Shown: one piece after another, positions 8,679 to 19,618 of the stretch
How the letters are laid out: every line of letters begins with the position of its first letter
Numbering within the stretch: the first letter of the stretch is position 1
Origin: Candidatus Micrarchaeota archaeon
GTDB lineage: Archaea > Micrarchaeota > Micrarchaeia > Anstonellales > Bilamarchaeaceae
Assembly (NCBI GenBank): GCA_043821365.1
Contig: JBDRCX010000003.1
Span: 1 to 64,000 of the forward strand
DNA: 64,000 nucleotides
Direction of reading: 5' to 3'
Program-made: the position numbers and the translations under genes
The notes under the pieces: model-generated
The model's input: only the letters and a program-made list of their open reading frames with translations
Told to the model about the DNA's origin: nothing
Databases searched by the model: none

Positions 8679-9209
8679 ATGATAATTGTTATGGGACTTC
8701 CAGGTGCAGGAAAAACGACTGTTCTAAAAGGATTGAAAACAGATTACAGGATACTTAATTACGGAGACTTAATGCTTGAAATAGAAAAAGAGCATTTTGG
8801 TGTAAAAGATAGGGATGATATGAGAAAACTCCCTATTGAGAAACAGAAACAGGCACAGAAAATGGTTTATGAAAAATTATCCCAAGAACAGGGTAAATTT
8901 ATACTAGATACCCATTGCTCAGTCAACACTCCAAAAGGTTTTTTCCCTGGATTGCCATTTGATTATTTGAAGATGTTAAAAGTTGATGCCGTTGTTTTAA
9001 TAACAGCAGATCCTAAAGAAGTTGCAAAAAGAAGAGCATCTGATCCAACAAGAAAACGTGATGCTGATGACATTTTCTTACATGACAACCTAAACAAATC
9101 ATATTTGGCAGCTTACAGTGCATTTACTGGAGCCCCAGCAATTGTTATTCTCAATCAACAAGGCAAATTAGAAGAAGCAGTTGCTAGATTACAATCTATA
9201 CTCGTCTGA
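8679..9209 (+). CDS. adkA: Archaeal adenylate kinase
   Basis: GLPGAGKTT P-loop, DRDDMRKL, DTH, GFFPGLP; follows secY. Confidence 0.93.
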   Translation: MIIVMGLPGAGKTTVLKGLKTDYRILNYGDLMLEIEKEHFGVKDRDDMRKLPIEKQKQAQKMVYEKLSQEQGKFILDTHCSVNTPKGFFPGLPFDYLKMLKVDAVVLITADPKEVAKRRASDPTRKRDADDIFLHDNLNKSYLAAYSAFTGAPAIVILNQQGKLEEAVARLQSILV

Positions 9210-11628
9210 TAGGATTTGTTTCTCTTTTTGTAATTTTTCTATCTCCAGCAACAATTCTAAGAAACTCCCTATATCTCTCTCTCATATCCCTTGAAACTGA
9301 AATTCCACCTTCATTCCCAATCATCATATTTGATAAAGCCTGATCTAATCTTCTTGGAATTTGTGCACTTTCAACTTCAACCAAATGTGGTTTTCTTGGG
9401 TGCATATTAAATCCAACCAAAACTTTACCTCTGAGTTCTAAAAGTGCAATGTCATTTCCTTGCGAATCTCTACTCACCTCAATTTTTCTTAATACAACTC
9501 TATCATCTGTAATAGTTGCATCTGGTTTCCACATGGCAACCATAGGGACTGCAGTTCTAAGCATCTCTAAATCATATGAAACAACATCTGATTTTGGCTC
9601 TATTCTTTCTCTACCAGCTGGTATTTTTGGGTCAGAACTAAATAATTTTGCAGTTTCTGGAACTGCTTCAACATCTCTAACCTTTCTTAATTCAATTACT
9701 GCACTTTCAGTGACTAATTTTCCACATTGTTTGCCTTTTTCAGGTGTTAAAGTTAAATGTCCGGCAGTTGTAGCTTCAAATCCAAAACTATCCAAAACTG
9801 TCAGTACATCGCTTGTATATGGATAGCCTAAGGAAGAAGTAATTAGAATTCTTGTAGTCTCATCTGAGCTTCTGTTAAGTCGTACTAACATTTCAGCTGA
9901 TTGACTTGTTGTCAACCAGTGTGCAAAAGAAAGTAATAGAATTTGTTTTCTTGGTTCACCTGGAAATTTACCACTAAATATATCATCAACAAAATGATGT
10001 GTTAATGAAATTCCCGGAACAAGTGCAGCAACTCTTTCTGGCAGAGTTTCATGAAACATTGAGACAACTGCAGTGTCTGTACAAACACTTGCTTTTGCAA
10101 GTGTGACTATCTCTCTGAATCCCCAAAGCTGTTCCAGTCTATTGCCAATTAAATTATGCAATACATCACTTCTAGAAGCTCTCCAGACTTGCATTGCAAG
10201 TGCTATGCTTTGATCTACTGTTATCACATGTTCTGAAACTGCTCGCCTAAGAAATGCTAATTCTGGATAGTTATTCATATACCTGCGTAATGTTGTTGCA
10301 GAAATGCGCCTCCATTGATTTGCAAGATTTACTATTGCATCATAACCTCGTTTTTCTCTTGCTTCAAGAACTCTTGCATCAGTTCGTGATGAAAATTTAT
10401 GATCAGTTATAGTATTAAGTATCTCCCAGTCTCCACATTTTCTTATCCATTCTAGTTGTAATGAAGCAAGATCCACCCACCTCATTATTGCAGAAGCTTG
10501 AATCGTTATTCCGTGTCTCTCAGTTATCCATCCAACGATTGCCGGTGCAGTTGGATATTCTTTTTTATGTGCTTCTACTACCCTCAATATTATTCTTTCA
10601 AGTTTATCATGTGCTTTTTTTCTTACTCCATCATCTTCAACACCAGTAAGAACTTTACCTTTAAAATATTTCAAAAAAACACTAGATTTGCAACTGTCAA
10701 GCCAATTAGACTGGAGTTTTGATATATCAAGTTGTGTAGTTAATGTGCCACATGATATTCGTAAGCCATATTTACCCTCCAGGATATCTGCTATTTTTGG
10801 TGCCGCTGGAAAAACATCTGGATTTTCTTTTAATGCATCACTCACCATGGTTCTGAGTCGTTCTGTTACTAGTTTTTTTATTGAAGGATCAACTCTGCTG
10901 AATCTTCCATTCTTGAGTTCTTGTAAGAATGCAGTTCCATCACATTCTTTTATCCATCTTCTTTGGAATTTTTTAAGATCAGTTGTATTCTGAACTGCAG
11001 TTTCATTAAAATCAATATCATGTTTTTCTTTTATCGAACTTGCTACATTATATCCACTTGGAAAAATGTCTGGCTTCTCTTGAAGAAGATCGCCAACCAC
11101 TTCAGTGAATCTTCTTCTTATTGCTCTTCCTATTCTTCTAGAATCTCTTTTACTATTTATTTTACTGTTTTTCATGTTCCACAAAAGTGCGCGGGGTTCA
11201 CACCCCGCGATCCAGGTTAATTGCATGTCTGCTGTTTCTATGTATGTTGCAATAGTTGGAGCACTAATTCTTACCCCGTATGTTTCATGTAAATAATTAA
11301 CAATGCCCATATCTGTGGGGCACAAGCTTGGTCTTTTTGCAATTTCTCCATCAACTATCTTTCTTAATCTTTTTTCAACTGTAGTTTTGATTATGTCTAT
11401 GCCGGATCCAAACTCATTTTTACTTAATGCAACTAGGAATCTTTGTTCATTACTTGTTTTTATCCATCTAATCAAATATGGTGTTAAGAATGTCCTATTG
11501 AAACCATGTTCATGTCTTACCTGATACCCTCTTTCTCTGAGTCTAGATAAGACAGCAGTTGAACTAGGGCATAAACCAGGATCTTCCATTGCTATCTCTG
11601 TCAATCTAATTCGTTCTACCCTGTCCAT
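9196..11628 (-). CDS. 810-aa hypothetical protein with five tandem ~85-aa HTH-like repeats
   Basis: Long open frame; self-alignment shows repeated P-x4-I/V...E-x-Y/H-G-I-x-I...Q-x2-W-I-x2-C units at aa 17-440. Confidence 0.85.
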   Translation of the reverse strand: MDRVERIRLTEIAMEDPGLCPSSTAVLSRLRERGYQVRHEHGFNRTFLTPYLIRWIKTSNEQRFLVALSKNEFGSGIDIIKTTVEKRLRKIVDGEIAKRPSLCPTDMGIVNYLHETYGVRISAPTIATYIETADMQLTWIAGCEPRALLWNMKNSKINSKRDSRRIGRAIRRRFTEVVGDLLQEKPDIFPSGYNVASSIKEKHDIDFNETAVQNTTDLKKFQRRWIKECDGTAFLQELKNGRFSRVDPSIKKLVTERLRTMVSDALKENPDVFPAAPKIADILEGKYGLRISCGTLTTQLDISKLQSNWLDSCKSSVFLKYFKGKVLTGVEDDGVRKKAHDKLERIILRVVEAHKKEYPTAPAIVGWITERHGITIQASAIMRWVDLASLQLEWIRKCGDWEILNTITDHKFSSRTDARVLEAREKRGYDAIVNLANQWRRISATTLRRYMNNYPELAFLRRAVSEHVITVDQSIALAMQVWRASRSDVLHNLIGNRLEQLWGFREIVTLAKASVCTDTAVVSMFHETLPERVAALVPGISLTHHFVDDIFSGKFPGEPRKQILLLSFAHWLTTSQSAEMLVRLNRSSDETTRILITSSLGYPYTSDVLTVLDSFGFEATTAGHLTLTPEKGKQCGKLVTESAVIELRKVRDVEAVPETAKLFSSDPKIPAGRERIEPKSDVVSYDLEMLRTAVPMVAMWKPDATITDDRVVLRKIEVSRDSQGNDIALLELRGKVLVGFNMHPRKPHLVEVESAQIPRRLDQALSNMMIGNEGGISVSRDMRERYREFLRIVAGDRKITKRETNPIRRV

Positions 11629-11718
11629 CCATACTCATCTGTGTTTATTAGTATATTAATATGTCTTTAAAAAGACTTTTCTCTCATTATTTTAATTACT
11701 TCTCTTCAAAGCAAGTTT

Positions 11719-12996
11719 ATGATAGATATCCATATACTTAGGGGAAATCCAGCTATTGTCGAAGAATCATTGCGTAAAAGGCATTATTCTGAGGATTCAT
11801 TTGCATTATTATCAAAGATTCTAGAGCTAGATACTCAATGGAGAACAATAAAAAAAGAAGAAGAGCAGTTAAGGTCTGAGAGAAACAAATTAAGTGCTGA
11901 TATTAATGAGAAGAAGAAAGCAGGAGAAAGTATCGACGCAGAAATTGTTCGTTCTGGAGAAGTGAGTAAAAGGATAAAAGACATTTCAGTTGAAACAACA
12001 ACATTAGAAGAACAGATAAATGATCAGGCTCTTCTACTACCAAATATTCCTCACGATTCAGTTCCTATGGGTTCTGATGAGTCTGCAAATGTTGAAATAA
12101 GAACATGGGGAGAACCAATCAAACATCCAAATGATGTACTAGATCATCATGCACTTGGAGAAAAAACAAAATTAATTGATTTTGAAAGAGGAGTCAAACT
12201 AGCTCACCACAGATTTAGTATTCTCTATGGTGATCTTGCCAAACTTGAGAGAGCAATAATCAATTTCATGCTTTCCATACATGTTTCTCGCGGCTATGTT
12301 GAAGTTGCACCACCCTACCTTGTAAATACAAAAACAATGACTGGCACAGGCCAACTTCCAAAATTTAGAGACGAATTATATCAGTGTAAGGATGATGACC
12401 TTCTTCTTATTCCAACTGCAGAAGTTCCAGTAACAAATCTTTATTCGGGTGAAATAATCGAGGAAAAAAACCTTCCAACTAAATTTGCTGCATATACTCC
12501 ATGTTTCAGAAGGGAAGCAGGTGCATATGGGAAAGATATCAAAGGTCTTATCAGACAGCACCAGTTCAATAAGGTTGAACTAGTGAAATTCAGCCACCCA
12601 GCAACAAGCTTCCAAGAACTTGAAGGTCTTACTAAGGATGCTGAGCGTATTCTTGAACTTCTTGATATTCCTTATAGGGTAATTGAACTATGCACTGGAG
12701 ATCTTGGTTTTGCAAGTTCAAAAACCTATGATATAGAAGCGTGGATACCATCTCAAGATAAATACAGGGAAATATCTTCATGTTCCAATTGCACTGATTT
12801 CCAAGCAAGAAGGGCAAATATACGTTTTAGGGGCTCAAAAGGAGTTGAGTTTGTCCATACACTTAATGGCAGTGGCCTTGCAGTTGGCAGGACAATGGTT
12901 GCCATACTTGAAAACTATCAAGAAGACAAGAAAACAGTAGTAGTCCCAAAGGTTTTACAAAATTTCATGGACCAAGAGACAATTGAGCTTGAGTGA
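11719..12996 (+). CDS. serS: Seryl-tRNA synthetase (standard type)
   Basis: N-terminal coiled coil, PTAEVP, CFRREAG, GLIRQHQFNKVE, HTLNGSGLA. Confidence 0.98.
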   Translation: MIDIHILRGNPAIVEESLRKRHYSEDSFALLSKILELDTQWRTIKKEEEQLRSERNKLSADINEKKKAGESIDAEIVRSGEVSKRIKDISVETTTLEEQINDQALLLPNIPHDSVPMGSDESANVEIRTWGEPIKHPNDVLDHHALGEKTKLIDFERGVKLAHHRFSILYGDLAKLERAIINFMLSIHVSRGYVEVAPPYLVNTKTMTGTGQLPKFRDELYQCKDDDLLLIPTAEVPVTNLYSGEIIEEKNLPTKFAAYTPCFRREAGAYGKDIKGLIRQHQFNKVELVKFSHPATSFQELEGLTKDAERILELLDIPYRVIELCTGDLGFASSKTYDIEAWIPSQDKYREISSCSNCTDFQARRANIRFRGSKGVEFVHTLNGSGLAVGRTMVAILENYQEDKKTVVVPKVLQNFMDQETIELE

Positions 12997-12997
12997 T

Positions 12998-13732
12998 ATG
13001 GGCAAGAAACAACGTGTTCCATTTTGCAAAAACCACAAAGGTTCGATTAGATACACTTCAGACGGTAAATTCATCTATGCAGAAAAAGATGGAATTGACG
13101 TCAGGCTTGATATGTTTGATAAACATTATTACAAACTCCGACCAGTTAATGGAGTACCAATCCTTGAAATTGATGGTCTAAGGATGCAACTGATAAAAGA
13201 TTTCAAGACCCCTCTTGATTATGCCAAAGAGGTTGTTCACCAGTTAAAAATTCCTAAAAATGGTGAGTTTACCATTCTAGATACCTGCATGGGTTTGGGA
13301 TATACTGCAATTGAAGTTGCCAAACCCAAATCAGTTAAAATTGTAGTAACCTGTGAACTTTCAGAAGCAGTAGTAACATTAGCACAGTGGAATCCTTTTA
13401 GTGATCCATTATTCTCTAAAGATAGTAAAATAATACTTATGAATGGAAATTCATCTGATCTAATCAAAACATTTGAATCAAATATGTTTGATTTTCTTAT
13501 TCACGATCCACCAAGATTTTCGCATGCTCCTGATCTTTATGCTACTGAATTTTATACTGAACTTTATAGGGTTTGCAAACCAAAAGCTAGAATCTTTCAT
13601 TATGTTGGTTCAGTTGGTAAATCATCCGGGAGAAAAATCGAAATTGAAGTAGAAAAACGATTGAAATTAGTTGGTTTTAAGAATATAAAATACCTATCAA
13701 AGTTACAAGGACTTGTTTTTGAGAAGCTATAA
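12998..13732 (+). CDS. Predicted archaeal SAM-dependent methyltransferase (COG2521-like)
   Basis: LDTCMGLGYTAI motif I, IHDPPRFS, FYTELYRV. Confidence 0.8.
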   Translation: MGKKQRVPFCKNHKGSIRYTSDGKFIYAEKDGIDVRLDMFDKHYYKLRPVNGVPILEIDGLRMQLIKDFKTPLDYAKEVVHQLKIPKNGEFTILDTCMGLGYTAIEVAKPKSVKIVVTCELSEAVVTLAQWNPFSDPLFSKDSKIILMNGNSSDLIKTFESNMFDFLIHDPPRFSHAPDLYATEFYTELYRVCKPKARIFHYVGSVGKSSGRKIEIEVEKRLKLVGFKNIKYLSKLQGLVFEKL

Positions 13733-13756
13733 AAATCTCCGTGGCAATAGCTTTGT

Positions 13757-14683
13757 ATGGGTAAAGCAGTAGTGGTATCTAACATTTCTAAAGTATATTC
13801 TAGTGCTGGAGAACAGGTAATAGCATTAGATGATGTTAGTTTGACTATTGATTCTGGTGAAATTTTTGGTTTACTCGGACCAAACGGTGCAGGTAAAACC
13901 ACTTTGATCAGTGTCCTAGTTGGGATTCTAACACCTGATGACGGTAAAGCGGAAATTCTTGGTTTTGATTGTATAAAAGATACTAAAAAAATGCAAGAAA
14001 TCATAAATCTTGTTTCTGGTTTTACTGGTGCTTTATTTCGATTGTCATGTGAAGAAGCACTAATGTATTATTCACTTCTATATAACGTTCCAAATCCAAA
14101 CGAGAAGATTAAATCAGTACTTGAACTTGTTCATTTGGAAAATGCAAAGAATCTTGCAGTGGAAGATTTTTCAGCAGGTATGAAACAAAGATATTTGATA
14201 GCAAAATCACTTCTTAATGACCCTAAAGTTCTTATACTTGACGAACCAACCGTTGGTCTTGATGTTGAGTCAGCAATAAATATCCGAGAGATTATAAAAC
14301 GTCTTAGAAAAGAGGGAAGAACTATAATCTTAACAACACACAATATGTTTGAGGCAGAAGAGCTGTGTGATCGGATTGCATTCATCAACAACGGAAAGAT
14401 TCAGAATGTAGGTACATTTGCAGAACTCAAAGAAAAAGTTATTCATAAAAGAATAATTGAAATAAACTGTTCTGATGGCCGTCTAATTATTGAGGCACTC
14501 AAAGGAGTAAAAGGTATATCTGTCTTTTCCCATTCATCAAAACTTGTCCACATCGAAGTTGATAAATACGAGAGAATTAAGGATTTGATGAAATCACTTT
14601 CAAAAACAAAATCAGAAATATTTAATATCAGTGCACTTGAGCCAACACTCGAAGAAACCTATCTTAAGTTGATAAAAAGATGA
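13757..14683 (+). CDS. ABC-2 type exporter, ATP-binding subunit
   Basis: GPNGAGKTT, FSAGMKQR, LILDEPT, TTH. Confidence 0.95.
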   Translation: MGKAVVVSNISKVYSSAGEQVIALDDVSLTIDSGEIFGLLGPNGAGKTTLISVLVGILTPDDGKAEILGFDCIKDTKKMQEIINLVSGFTGALFRLSCEEALMYYSLLYNVPNPNEKIKSVLELVHLENAKNLAVEDFSAGMKQRYLIAKSLLNDPKVLILDEPTVGLDVESAINIREIIKRLRKEGRTIILTTHNMFEAEELCDRIAFINNGKIQNVGTFAELKEKVIHKRIIEINCSDGRLIIEALKGVKGISVFSHSSKLVHIEVDKYERIKDLMKSLSKTKSEIFNISALEPTLEETYLKLIKR

Positions 14684-15462
14684 ATAATATGAAAAGAATC
14701 CTAACGCGCATTTATTCTCAGGTTCATAAAAGTATGTCTTCACTTAAAAGAAATACTTTCAGGCTATCGGATATATTCATCTGGCCAATGATTTTTCTAT
14801 TTACATTAACTTTTTTCGTTACCTACCTTGGTACTGATAATGTTTATTTGCATATGATCATACTAGGTATGATGGGTTGGAGAATGATCTATTTCCTTAA
14901 TCTTGAGATGGTCAGTTCATATACTGAGGAATATTGGTCAAAGGCTCTGGCCCATTTAATGATATCTCCAATCACTAGGCTTGAAATGGCACTAGGAACT
15001 GCAATAAGCGGACTGTTAAAAGGAATTTTTGTCATTATTATTTACTTAATAGCAACACATTATCTATATGGCTTTTCAATTACAAACTGGTCCATCTTTC
15101 TTATTGCACTTGTATTCTTTGCCTTAATCGGTTTTTCCATGGGTTTGTTCACACTTGGTCTTGGTTATTTTATGAAGGAAGAGGCCTTCAACATAGCATT
15201 CATTTGGCCTGATGTTATAGTCTTGCTTTCAGGTGTATACTTTTCCGTTGATGCAGTTTATCCTGCATCCATCTTACCCTTAGTAAGATTATTGCCAAGT
15301 ACCCAAGCATTTGAATTGTTAAAGTCTATGAATGGACTTGGTAATCCAGATATGGTTATTTTAGTTTCCATGACTGCGTTGTGGCTTGTTTGTGGCTATA
15401 TCTTTAATGGATTCATGTATGAAAAAGCACGCAAAGCAGGTAAATTAGCAAGACTTGGTTAA
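14680..15462 (+). CDS. ABC-2 type exporter, permease
   Basis: About six hydrophobic segments, LSGVYFSV, LLPST; overlaps the ATPase stop. Confidence 0.88.
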   Translation: MNNMKRILTRIYSQVHKSMSSLKRNTFRLSDIFIWPMIFLFTLTFFVTYLGTDNVYLHMIILGMMGWRMIYFLNLEMVSSYTEEYWSKALAHLMISPITRLEMALGTAISGLLKGIFVIIIYLIATHYLYGFSITNWSIFLIALVFFALIGFSMGLFTLGLGYFMKEEAFNIAFIWPDVIVLLSGVYFSVDAVYPASILPLVRLLPSTQAFELLKSMNGLGNPDMVILVSMTALWLVCGYIFNGFMYEKARKAGKLARLG

Positions 15463-15468
15463 AGTTGA

Positions 15469-16680
15469 CTAGAAAACGCCCAAGACATAATTTATCTTCT
15501 CAATTGTTTCTATTATCAAAATACTATCATTTTTTGTTAATTTATTTTCATTTGTCATTTTTTCTATTTTGTTAAAAATTACAAAAATTCTTCTATAGGC
15601 AAGTTTGGTGTTCAAGTCATCATCCATTGCATTTGTAAAACCTTCCAATAGTTTTTTGCTCATCTTATTTCCTTTTTCAGAGTTTCCTTTATTTTTTATT
15701 TTTCTAAGTTTTGTTATTAATTTCCTTATTTTTTCACATTCACAAATTCTACTTTTGAATTTTTCTACTGTAAAATCAAGTGGATTTCTGTATTTCTCTG
15801 ATGTTAAATAGAATCTAAGACACTTTGGTGGAATCCCAGCTTTTTTCAATGGATCAACATATAGTACATTACCAGTTCTCTTTGACATTTTTCTTTTTCC
15901 AATGGTAAGATGTTTGGCATGAAGCCAAAAATTAGCGAATTTTTTTCCAGTAGCACACTCACTCTGTGCAATCTCATTTTCATGATGTGGGAAGATATTA
16001 TCTGTTCCACCACAATGTATGTCTATTGTTTCACCCAGATAATGCATTGCTATTGCACTACACTCTATATGCCAACCTGGTCTCCCATCTCCAAACTTAC
16101 TTTTCCAAAATACTTTCCCATCTCCTCTTGACCAGAATTTCCATAATCTAAAGTCCCAGTGCCCTTCTTTTGCATAATCATCTCTTGCAATTTTTCCAAA
16201 ATACGTGTTTCTTATTTTTTTAAGCCTCCCATATTTCTTATATTTTTTAATATTAAAATAAATCCCGTCTTTTTCTTTTTTGCAATAGCCATTTTCACAT
16301 AATTTTTCTATCAATTTAACCATTTCCTCTATGTGTAGTGATGCTTTGACTATCTTATTTGGTTTTAACATCCCAAGTTCTTGAAAATCTGATAAGAATT
16401 TTTTTATCTTATTTTTTTGTATCGTTTCCATGTTTTTGTTTTCTTTTTTTGCCTGTGCCATTGCTTTATCTTCAATATCAGTTATGTTCATAATTCTCTT
16501 GACACAAAAACCTTTGAATATCAAATATCTAACTAATATATCCTCGAAGAGGTAGGTTCTGAAATTCCCAATGTGGGAGTAGGCATATACAGAAGGACCA
16601 CAAGTGTATATCTTGGCGGTTTTGCCATCGATTGGCAGAAATCCTCTCTTCTTTTTACTCATAGTGTCAAACAATTTCAT
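15469..16680 (-). CDS. cysS: Cysteinyl-tRNA synthetase-like protein, C-terminally short
   Basis: YTCGPSVY, HIGN, GRPGWHIECS, FPHHENE, KMSKR; ends LGVF. Start set at MKLFDT. Confidence 0.88.
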   Translation of the reverse strand: MKLFDTMSKKKRGFLPIDGKTAKIYTCGPSVYAYSHIGNFRTYLFEDILVRYLIFKGFCVKRIMNITDIEDKAMAQAKKENKNMETIQKNKIKKFLSDFQELGMLKPNKIVKASLHIEEMVKLIEKLCENGYCKKEKDGIYFNIKKYKKYGRLKKIRNTYFGKIARDDYAKEGHWDFRLWKFWSRGDGKVFWKSKFGDGRPGWHIECSAIAMHYLGETIDIHCGGTDNIFPHHENEIAQSECATGKKFANFWLHAKHLTIGKRKMSKRTGNVLYVDPLKKAGIPPKCLRFYLTSEKYRNPLDFTVEKFKSRICECEKIRKLITKLRKIKNKGNSEKGNKMSKKLLEGFTNAMDDDLNTKLAYRRIFVIFNKIEKMTNENKLTKNDSILIIETIEKINYVLGVF

Positions 16681-16933
16681 TGGAAAATACCCGTTGCCAC
16701 ATGTTAAATACTTTTTGCTACTAATATATATCATGGTTTTAAAAACCAAAAAACCAAAAATTTATCTTCTAAAAAATCTTGGCTGGGTCGAAGTAAAGGA
16801 TTCGCTATCTCTCAACTGTCTTCATAATTTCAATCCTCTTCGTTGTCTAAAAAAACTATTGCTATCGTTAAAAGATCGTATAGATTCCTGTTTTCATACA
16901 GAATATTAATTCTTTCCATTCTATTACTTTTTC

Positions 16934-17269
16934 ATGATAACTGAATTAGATACTGATCCAAAATCTGCTATTAAGGATATTGATTTGGCTGTTGTTGTGT
17001 TCTATGCACCTTGGTGTGGGGATTGTAAAACTTCTGAGGAATTTGAATCAAAACTTATTCAAGAATTTTCCGATATTATACAATTTTACAGACTTGATGC
17101 CGTTAATCTTGAAGACATTGCAGATTCATATGGAGTCGAAAGATACCCCACCTATGTATTCTTCAAAAAAGGAAAAGCACTACGTGGAAATCTAGTTGAA
17201 CCTGTTGAGTATGGAGAAGCAAAAAATTGGGTTGAGATTCAAATAGAAAAATCAAAAAGATTAAGATAA
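16934..17269 (+). CDS. Thioredoxin-family protein
   Basis: FYAPWCGDC, YGVERYPT. Confidence 0.9.
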   Translation: MITELDTDPKSAIKDIDLAVVVFYAPWCGDCKTSEEFESKLIQEFSDIIQFYRLDAVNLEDIADSYGVERYPTYVFFKKGKALRGNLVEPVEYGEAKNWVEIQIEKSKRLR

Positions 17270-17312
17270 TTTACCGTTAACCCAGACGGAAAATTGTTCT
17301 ATTGTTATAACC

Positions 17313-19502
17313 TTACTCCATGAAAAATGCAGCTGTTGGTGGGTCTGGTCGTTCACCCTTTCTCTCACGGATCTGTCTTACAACTTTAGCAACAAGTTCT
17401 TTTGGCATCATATGATAACCTGCATACTCTTGATACCAAATTGCTCTTCCTTGTGTTGCACCACGGAGTTCATTTGCAAAACCAAACATCTCAGCAACTG
17501 GAAGCAGTGTTGTTATTGCTGCATTTTCACCTTCTTGTTGCATATCAACTAGTTGGCCTCGTCTACCGTTTGTTAATGTAATAACATTCCCTGCATAATC
17601 CTGAAGTGTGTTTATAAGTACTTTTTGTTTTGGTTCAAGTAAACTCACACCGGCAGTAAGCATAGCAGCATAGATGGCTCTTTTTGTAGTTGGAATCATC
17701 TGTGCAGGGCCACGGTGTATGTTATCCTCGTGGAGTGTTGCGTCCATAAGTTTTACCTTCACACCACTCATCTTTTCTTTTGCCAGTGGTCCTTGGTCCA
17801 AAGCTTCTTCGAAACCCTGTATCATAAGTTCTTCAACTTCATTCAAATATTGTATACCCTTGGTGCAGTCTATGAATACACTGCCATTATGGATATCATA
17901 AATGCTCTTTGCTTCTTCTCTTTCCATTCCTAATTCTATGAATTTTTCCCAAACTTCACGTCCTTTTGGTCTACCTTCTTTGACAACCCCTTCTTGGATA
18001 GCCTTTATAATTTCTGGTTCAAGAGGTTCAACCATGACTTTCAATTTGTTGTGTTTATTTGGTGATTTTCCTTCAACTACAGGAGAGTTACCAAGCAAAG
18101 CTTCTCTATAAACAACAATTGGGGATGATGTGATGATTGGTACTTTTTTCTCATTAATTATCTTGTATTCGATAATCTCCAAGTGTAATTCACCATTTCC
18201 ACTGATAAGGTTTTCACCTGTTTCAGCCAGTTGAACTTTGATTGTCGGGTCTTCTTTTGAAATACTTCTCAATGCCTCAATTAATTTTGGAAGATCTTTT
18301 TGGTCTTTAACTTCAATTGATTTTGTAATCACCGGTTCTGAATAGTGCTTAATTTGTTCAAATGGCTCTATTGGTTCAAGAGAAATTGTTTCCCCAACAT
18401 AAACATCTTTCATACCAACTATTGCACCAATATTACCTGCCATAATTTTATTGGCAGCTACTCTGTCCGGCCCCATGTAAATACCGACTTGCTGTACTTT
18501 GGCATATATCTTTTTCGATGCAATGTAAAGTTGCACGCCCTTTTCTATAGTTCCTGAGAATAATCGCATTACTGCAACTTCCCCAGCATGTTCGTCATAG
18601 ACAACACCAAAACAAACACCAACAACTTTTCCTTTTGCGTCACATGCAAGCATTGATTTTCCTTCGTCAGTTGTCAAATCCCCATGTCTCCACAGAACTG
18701 GAGTACGGTAAGCCTGTGCAACTTTTGGAGATGGTAAATGTGTAATTATTATCTCAAGTAGAACATCATCCAATGGGCTTTTCTCTACTAAGTATTTATG
18801 ATCTTCTTCTACACATTTGTTATAAATTTCAGGAAAAGTGATATTGAATTTTTTCATTGATTTGATTGAAACTGCCCATTTATTGAATGCAGTTCCAAAT
18901 GCAACATTTCCCTTGTTTACTGAAATTAACCAATCATCTTTTTTGTCTGGAGGTGCATTAGATTCTATAATCTTGTTTACTTGTGTAATAATTTTTACGA
19001 ATCGTTCTTGCATTCCTGCAGAATCCAATTTAAGTTCGTTGATTAGTCTATCAATTTTATTGATGAACAAAACTGGTTTTGCTCTTTCTTTTAATGCTTG
19101 TCTAAGGTTTGTTTCTGTTTGTGGCATAACTCCTTCCACAGCATCAACAACAAGGCAAATCCCATCAACTGCTCTCATTGCACGTACAACGTGGAAACCA
19201 AAATCAACGTGTCCTGGAGTATCTATTAAGTTGATAAGGTGGTCTTTCCCTTCAAAATTAAAACCTAATGAGATGTTTGCTGATTTGATTGTGATACCTC
19301 TTGCCTGTTCTTGCGGGTCAAAATCAGTCCATCTTTGTTCTCCAGCAAGTTCTTTTGATATAAGTCCTGCTCTTGCAACAAGTGAATCAGTTAATGTGGT
19401 TTTACCATGATCTACATGAGCAACAATAGCAACATTACGCACATATTCTGTGTGCTCCATCATCTTCTGTACTTCATCTACAACAAATTCTTTTCTTGCC
19501 AT
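17313..19502 (-). CDS. fusA: Archaeal elongation factor EF-2
   Basis: AHVDHGKTT, RGITI, DTPGHVDF, NKID, HRGPAQ diphthamide loop. Confidence 0.98.
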   Translation of the reverse strand: MARKEFVVDEVQKMMEHTEYVRNVAIVAHVDHGKTTLTDSLVARAGLISKELAGEQRWTDFDPQEQARGITIKSANISLGFNFEGKDHLINLIDTPGHVDFGFHVVRAMRAVDGICLVVDAVEGVMPQTETNLRQALKERAKPVLFINKIDRLINELKLDSAGMQERFVKIITQVNKIIESNAPPDKKDDWLISVNKGNVAFGTAFNKWAVSIKSMKKFNITFPEIYNKCVEEDHKYLVEKSPLDDVLLEIIITHLPSPKVAQAYRTPVLWRHGDLTTDEGKSMLACDAKGKVVGVCFGVVYDEHAGEVAVMRLFSGTIEKGVQLYIASKKIYAKVQQVGIYMGPDRVAANKIMAGNIGAIVGMKDVYVGETISLEPIEPFEQIKHYSEPVITKSIEVKDQKDLPKLIEALRSISKEDPTIKVQLAETGENLISGNGELHLEIIEYKIINEKKVPIITSSPIVVYREALLGNSPVVEGKSPNKHNKLKVMVEPLEPEIIKAIQEGVVKEGRPKGREVWEKFIELGMEREEAKSIYDIHNGSVFIDCTKGIQYLNEVEELMIQGFEEALDQGPLAKEKMSGVKVKLMDATLHEDNIHRGPAQMIPTTKRAIYAAMLTAGVSLLEPKQKVLINTLQDYAGNVITLTNGRRGQLVDMQQEGENAAITTLLPVAEMFGFANELRGATQGRAIWYQEYAGYHMMPKELVAKVVRQIRERKGERPDPPTAAFFME

Positions 19503-19618
19503 AAATTTCATCTCTTTTTTCTTATAGAAATTTATAATTGAACGGAACGCCGTTCAATACCATAAATTTCATCTCTTTTTTCTTATAGAAATTTATAATT
19601 GACCGAGACTCGGTCAAT
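19500..19618. repeat. 61-bp-period tandem duplication of the EF-2 start/leader with hairpins
   Basis: 42 identical nt at 19500-19541 and 19561-19602, each running into a different self-complementary segment ending tcaat. Confidence 0.9.

Follow-up and report, generated by a model that had tools for sequence, protein, structure and literature searches.

A tandem helical repeat array, probably helix-turn-helix-like, joined to a methyltransferase-fold domain in a small protein family of Micrarchaeota

Introduction

What might a protein do when half of its length is a single helical module repeated five times, and what does the array carry at its end? The question is raised by a gene in a 64,000-nucleotide (nt) stretch of DNA, here called the window, from a Candidatus Micrarchaeota archaeon (GenBank assembly GCA_043821365.1, contig JBDRCX010000003.1, positions 1 to 64,000). 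The genomes of Micrarchaeota are very small, and hardly any proteins of these organisms have been characterised by experiment. The gene product, P0001, had been described in a sequence-only reading as an orphan protein with five tandem helix-turn-helix (HTH)-like modules, a candidate modular DNA binder, followed by some 370 unrecognised amino acids (aa). The range highlighted there, 10309-11580, corresponds to residues 17 to 440 of P0001. We find that P0001, from a Micrarchaeota-type (DPANN) archaeon, is an accessory protein restricted to its lineage, and that it joins a helical repeat, probably HTH-like, to a methyltransferase-fold domain. Its interest lies mainly in a confidently predicted new repeat architecture and in the dynamics of the copy number. 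The array is modelled very confidently, yet neither the module nor the complete protein is covered by a public family model; searches of Pfam, NCBIfam, PADLOC, and PDB sequences gave nothing above threshold for either, and a literature search found no published description of the family. The number of units shifts on short evolutionary time scales, and the attached methyltransferase-fold domain is almost frozen.

Results

The repeat array

The five-unit repeat is real and far beyond chance. A BLASTP comparison of P0001 with itself showed no off-diagonal high-scoring segment pair at E ≤ 10, and the repeat was therefore tested by comparing Smith-Waterman scores for pairs of units with those of 500 shuffles. 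All six pairs among units 2 to 5 gave z scores of 10.9 to 17.6. Unit 1 was weaker: its z scores were 4.4 to 12.4 when it was paired with units 2, 3, and 5, its pairing with unit 4 showed no signal, and control comparisons of the units with C-terminal segments did not exceed 3.3. A hidden Markov model (HMM) of the unit placed the five copies at residues 17-95, 100-180, 186-265, 270-350, and 356-434, in agreement with the ∼85-aa units that had been proposed from the sequence. A proline at position 5 of all five units, and a tryptophan at position 40 and a cysteine at position 44 of units 2 to 5, were likewise read correctly.

Conservation was counted across 101 units of the family. Pro5 (93/93), Trp40 (88/100), and Arg or Lys at position 72 (101/101) are near universal or invariant, and Gln37 and Phe49-Leu50 are conserved too. 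Position 44 is cysteine in 28 units, serine in 27, and leucine in 22. Conservation thus does not extend to Cys44, and a role of this position in metal binding or a disulfide was rejected on the same count. The conserved skeleton consists of R-L..I on a long helix, P-x-[VI]-F-P, L-Q..W-I, and F-L. The least conserved segment is H3, the putative recognition helix, which is only 9% identical between units, in line with the earlier remark that it differs from unit to unit, and 25% identical between orthologous units of P0001 and its closest homolog, P0002. In recently amplified arrays, divergence is concentrated in the turn, in H3, and in the loop at positions 55 to 61; P-x-x-F-P, H4, and H5 diverge least. 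The face formed by H2, the turn, and H3, together with the loop that follows, is basic-polar (K+R 0.11 to 0.19 versus D+E 0.05 to 0.08); in H4 and H5 the acidic content equals or exceeds the basic. The N-terminal half carries a net charge of +17, and the isoelectric point (pI) of P0001, 9.4, lies in the top 15% of the proteome. No signal peptide or membrane segment was evident in the protein.

Residues 1 to 445 were modelled with AlphaFold2, using a 26-sequence alignment of the family. The result was a single continuous all-helical object with a mean predicted local distance difference test score (pLDDT) of 93.3 and a predicted template modelling score (pTM) of 0.79. Each modelled unit begins with a helix of about 21 residues, which is followed by helices of about 12, 7, 11, and 9 residues, and the long helix of each module bridges to the next. 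A pTM this high suggests that the units pack against one another in a fixed way, as in a rigid rod or solenoid and unlike a string of independent beads. Past the fifth unit, an I-S-x-x-T-L-x-x-Y stretch in the linker helices looks like a partial sixth H3.

Nature of the module

We consider the module probably HTH-like and perhaps HTH-derived. Unit 5 gave the best sequence matches, HTH_32 at 20.8 bits (Pfam gathering cutoff, 33.7) and HTH_33 at 15.1 bits (cutoff, 25), both below threshold, and an IS630 transposase model matched residues 334 to 397, also below threshold. When 77 units were scanned singly, the families heading the results were HTH_32, HTH_Tnp_Tc3_2, HTH_50, HTH_AsnC-type, HTH_24, HTH_11, TetR_N, and HTH_33; HTH_32 was matched by at most four units, with a best E value of 0.0051. 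Structural neighbors of one unit in the ESM Atlas were the N-terminal regions of IS3, IS630, and Mutator transposases, at template modelling (TM) scores of 0.43 to 0.53. These independent kinds of weak evidence, from sequence and from the Atlas, agree in hinting at an HTH-like module.

Two results weigh against an HTH identity. In hhalign, a profile of the 77 units aligned to 13 genuine HTH_32 segments from within the phylum with only 17.5% probability over 21 columns, which represent a generic H2-turn-H3 match, and in the subfamily to which the paralog in the window's genome belongs, the H2-H3 stretch is shorter and rich in proline. The IS630/Tc1 (HTH_33-like) resemblance put forward in the sequence-only reading survives as recurrent sub-threshold matches; membership in a described HTH family is not supported by the HTH_32 and HTH_33 scores or by the profile-profile comparison, and that interpretation as a whole is partly supported. 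Foldseek found no match of the N-terminal model to the PDB at E ≤ 1e-3, and neither Foldseek nor VIA gave a convincing match to TALE, PUF, PPR, mTERF, or other solenoids. The unit profile found nothing meaningful among PDB sequences, where the best match was a designed repeat protein (E = 0.0023), and Atlas feature searches returned no usable match. Tandem Myb/SANT repeats were ruled out by the 85-aa unit with its one conserved tryptophan, and no Myb or SANT model was among the families listed in the Pfam scans.

The N-terminal HTHs of IS630/Tc1-mariner and IS3 transposases (PF13565, PF13592, PF01498 HTH_Tnp_Tc3_2, and PF13276 HTH_21) are the nearest known systems by both sub-threshold sequence matches and Atlas neighbors. 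They share with the module the pattern hydrophobic-x3-L-x-E-x-[YH]-G-[IV]-x-[IV]-S-x-x-T-[IV] over the helix-turn-helix, preceded by a long helix. What sets the module apart is a P-x-[VI]-F-P cap, a pair of additional conserved helices (L-Q..W-I and F-L), and its iteration from 2 to at least 9 times with no transposase catalytic domain attached.

A small family with a variable number of units

P0001 is not an orphan, as had been supposed. A word-indexed search retrieved P0001 alone; however, when 1.84 billion representatives were scanned exhaustively with phmmer, 33 homolog clusters emerged, of which 19 reached E ≤ 1e-30. Those relatives that have a name are annotated as hypothetical proteins, and all come from metagenome-assembled genomes of Candidatus Micrarchaeota. 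The best homolog, P0002, has 809 aa, is 43% identical and collinear, and is a syntenic orthologue whose units correspond one by one to those of P0001. A C-terminal profile matched 13 of 301 genomes that sampled the phylum, all in the window's own order, and the unit profile matched 21 of 151 genomes of that order. Within the window's genome the module occurs only in P0001 and in a paralog on another contig (C2:59204-61345, + strand), a 713-aa protein with four units of ∼82 aa and the same C-terminal domain (E = 1.6e-27 against the P0001 C terminus). Judged by their N-terminal sequences, the paralog's flanking genes resemble scpA and sepF.

The family is small and, in the genomes searched, restricted to one order, and it changes quickly in unit number and in one face of the module. 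Variation in repeat number, which the sequence-only reading had proposed to look for among homologs, is indeed pronounced. Representatives carry 2 to 6 units, one 1,211-aa open reading frame (ORF) has 7 (G147:C4:11510-13090, in a genome with three family members), and an ORF of 1,151 aa that is cut by the contig end has at least 9 (G116:C11:46-2439). Identity between units of the same protein ranges from 21% in P0001, an old array, to 76% in P0005, a recent amplification. P0005 (638 aa, 3 units) and P0037 (721 aa, 4 units) come from the same locus, fall into one 90%-identity cluster, and differ by exactly one 83-aa unit, a difference for which repeat collapse during metagenome assembly is a possible cause. 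The two proteins share 99.5% identity in the methyltransferase-like core and the C-terminal end, with ratios of nonsynonymous to synonymous substitution (dN/dS) of 0.02 and 0.07, and their repeats are 82% identical with a dN/dS of 0.45, in an alignment whose register is ambiguous. Two complete members consist of repeats only, P0021 (303 aa, 3 units; L029:3562-4473) and P0013 (461 aa, 5 units; L031:1565-2950). Both lack the methyltransferase-like and beta domains and retain the terminal M..DY..F helix and basic tail. They sit among housekeeping genes such as thiI and a YchF/OLA1-like GTPase gene.

A methyltransferase fold without motif I

The C-terminal region, previously unrecognised, has a confident fold. 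AlphaFold2 with its own alignment gave a pLDDT of 86.5 and a pTM of 0.84 for residues 441 to 810, and Foldseek and the ESM Atlas agreed that residues 468 to 651 form a class-I methyltransferase fold, Rossmann-like with seven strands. The Atlas model of P0001 itself was poor (pLDDT of 0.59), and its structural neighbors for the C terminus and the beta subdomain were disregarded. The domain is strongly constrained and lacks motif I. Where G-x-G-x-G is expected, the sequence is V-V-S-x-x-H-E-x-L-P, with no glycine in any of the 26 family sequences. In hhalign against 28 real Methyltransf_11 domains from related genomes, only the beta4-alphaD-beta5 half aligned (32% probability, 76 columns), and the N-terminal half, which would bind S-adenosylmethionine (SAM), did not align. 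No Pfam methyltransferase model exceeded its threshold in the family; below threshold, DUF3419 appeared in 5 of the 26 members (best E value, 0.0028) and Methyltransf_2 in 2 (best E value, 0.011). The C-terminal profile found nothing meaningful among PDB sequences, and a homodimer prediction for the domain scored 0.01, which is evidence neither way.

The known class-I SAM-dependent methyltransferases with which the domain was compared were the methyltransferase-like domain of nucleomethylin/RRP8 (PDB 2zfu) and small-molecule O-methyltransferases (8big, 8rdm, and 3gwz). Unlike these, the P0001 domain has no glycine-rich motif I and an N-terminal half that cannot be aligned, and it is followed by an extra beta subdomain and a basic tail. 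Known proteins that couple a DNA-binding-type module to a methyltransferase-fold domain with a possible sensing rather than catalytic role carry a single HTH in place of an array, and no relationship to them was detected at the sequence level. The residues D472, Q473, R505, H544, T597, G616, and K637 are invariant in the family. All of these except G616, taken with the near-zero dN/dS, point to a functional pocket that is probably not the canonical SAM site.

Discussion

The reading that we favor, and hold tentatively, is that the variable basic-polar face recognises nucleic acid and that the array positions the conserved C-terminal domain on the target. The module skeleton would build a rigid scaffold, and the H2-turn-H3 face with its following loop would form the recognition surface, which most probably would bind DNA or structured RNA. 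The array would then place the C-terminal domain on the bound target, where it is likelier to bind a ligand or substrate in a remodelled pocket than to act as a canonical SAM methyltransferase. The range of targets would evolve by duplication or loss of units and by fast change of the H2-H3 face.

A somewhat unlikely alternative is a protein-protein scaffold. HTH and winged-helix derivatives have moved away from nucleic acid in TFIIIC tau138, Rpc82, ESCRT-II, and cullins, and the pseudo-methyltransferase would then serve as an interaction or sensor domain. The extended winged-helix domain of TFIIIC tau138 was among the weak structural matches, and the degraded HTH-like stretch of the paralog subfamily, the repeat-only members that keep just the C-terminal helix and tail, and the missing motif I glycines are all consistent with this. 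However, P0001 is basic overall, its variable face is basic-polar, and no conserved neighboring partner gene was found at the loci examined. Clearly unlikely, by comparison, is an active targeted methyltransferase that still binds SAM, through a noncanonical pocket, with the array directing methylation to particular sites on DNA, RNA, or protein. The clear fold, the half-domain alignment with genuine Methyltransf_11 proteins, the DUF3419 and Methyltransf_2 matches, and the very strong purifying selection on the invariant polar residues argue for it; the glycine-free motif, the unalignable SAM-binding half, and the absence of any Pfam methyltransferase model at threshold argue against it.

The least probable explanation, in our judgment, is that the array is a domesticated and amplified IS630/Tc1-type transposase HTH or a component of a conflict system, active in defence or in the control of mobile elements. 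Recurring weak matches to transposase HTHs (HTH_32, HTH_33, Tc3_2, HTH_21, and IS630) would fit such an origin, as would the patchy distribution, the lineage-specific insertion described below, tandem duplication, and copy-number change. However, the hhalign comparison with true HTH_32 segments is poor. PADLOC returned nothing for P0001 and only weak rows (E values of 0.005 to 0.06) for the family members P0012 and P0026. At the loci examined, family members had no transposase, terminal repeats, or defence genes beside them and no partner gene recurred, and P0001 has native base composition and housekeeping neighbors.

Nucleic acid recognition by the array, if correct, would take its most far-reaching form in a natural programmable reader, in which a long DNA or RNA target is read one sub-site per 85-residue module, through the hypervariable H2-turn-H3 face, and the array steers a noncanonical methyltransferase-fold effector, with strains retuning the specificity by adding, dropping, or editing modules. 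We regard this as very unlikely. By analogy only, TALE, PUF, PPR, and mTERF proteins share with the P0001 array a tandem helical arrangement, a conserved skeleton, a variable face, and an evolving number of units; their units have 34 to 36 aa and two or three helices, in contrast to 85 aa and five helices here. If reading were to proceed module by module, the family would offer programmable recognition on a natural scaffold of a new type, resembling TALE or PUF systems but made of HTH modules in DPANN archaea, and a handle on gene regulation or nucleic acid modification in Micrarchaeota. If the protein is instead a scaffold with a pseudo-enzyme, it would be a modest addition to the lineage-specific repeat proteins of DPANN archaea.

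Genomic setting

The gene is accessory and of the insertion type in its genomic context (Table 1). Elsewhere in the genus, 21 of 29 genomes carry serS immediately after adk on the same strand, separated by 8 to 301 nt, and among these are the closest relatives, whose adk products are 90% and 87% identical. The gene for P0001 is absent from all 21 of those loci, which identifies it as an insertion of 2.4 kb into a conserved housekeeping junction, oriented opposite to the genes on either side. At its 3′ end it overlaps the last nucleotides of adk convergently by 14 nt (9196-9209), leaving no space for separate terminators, and a divergent intergenic region of 90 nt (11629-11718) separates it from serS. 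Upstream lies secY with a string of ribosomal protein genes. A recent foreign origin was rejected on composition, the GC content of 0.356 being within the 0.31 to 0.39 found across the window. Contigs from three metagenome runs, belonging to two studies, of groundwater and biofilm, carry the gene sequence without any difference and showed no variants or joints. No RNA data were listed for this stretch.

Table 1. Features of P0001 and its flanking genes, in window coordinates
Feature	Position	Strand	Residues of P0001	Remark
Whole gene, P0001	9196..11628	-	1-810	ATG-initiated ORF, 810 aa, pI 9.4
Repeat unit 1	11332..11580	-	17-99	Most diverged; Trp shifted to position 39
Repeat unit 2	11074..11331	-	100-185	
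Repeat unit 3	10822..11073	-	186-269	
Repeat unit 4	10567..10821	-	270-354	
Repeat unit 5	10309..10566	-	355-440	Best sub-threshold HTH_32/HTH_33/IS630 matches
Linker helices	10228..10308	-	441-467	
Class-I methyltransferase-like Rossmann domain	9676..10227	-	468-651	
Beta-rich subdomain	9355..9570	-	687-758	Preceded by low-confidence loop, aa 670-682
C-terminal helices (M..Y..F motif) and basic tail	9199..9348	-	761-810	
Adenylate kinase gene (adk), archaeal-type	8679..9209	+		Left flank of insertion
Seryl-tRNA synthetase gene (serS)	11719..12996	+		Right flank of insertion

In a metagenomic relative, the slot between serS and adk holds P0002 (809 aa) and P0035 (795 aa) in tandem (L026:8001-12886), indicating a local duplication. 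An archaeal ATPase_2 (PF01637) gene lies directly upstream of P0037/P0005, with a 4-nt gap (L034:4582-5997, with DUF234 there), and another lies near P0013 (L031:288-1202). An ATPase_2/DUF234 gene as a general partner was rejected, as no homolog occurred at the other family loci or in the window's genome. Beyond the insertion, the window (12983-19511) and the contig of the metagenomic relative (L026:1-7864) have the same gene order, namely serS, a spermine-synthase-like methyltransferase gene, an ABC ATPase, an ABC permease, a short CysRS-like gene, thioredoxin, and EF-2. Because both contigs have the CysRS-like gene in its short form (about 401 to 426 aa), it is conserved rather than a local truncation.
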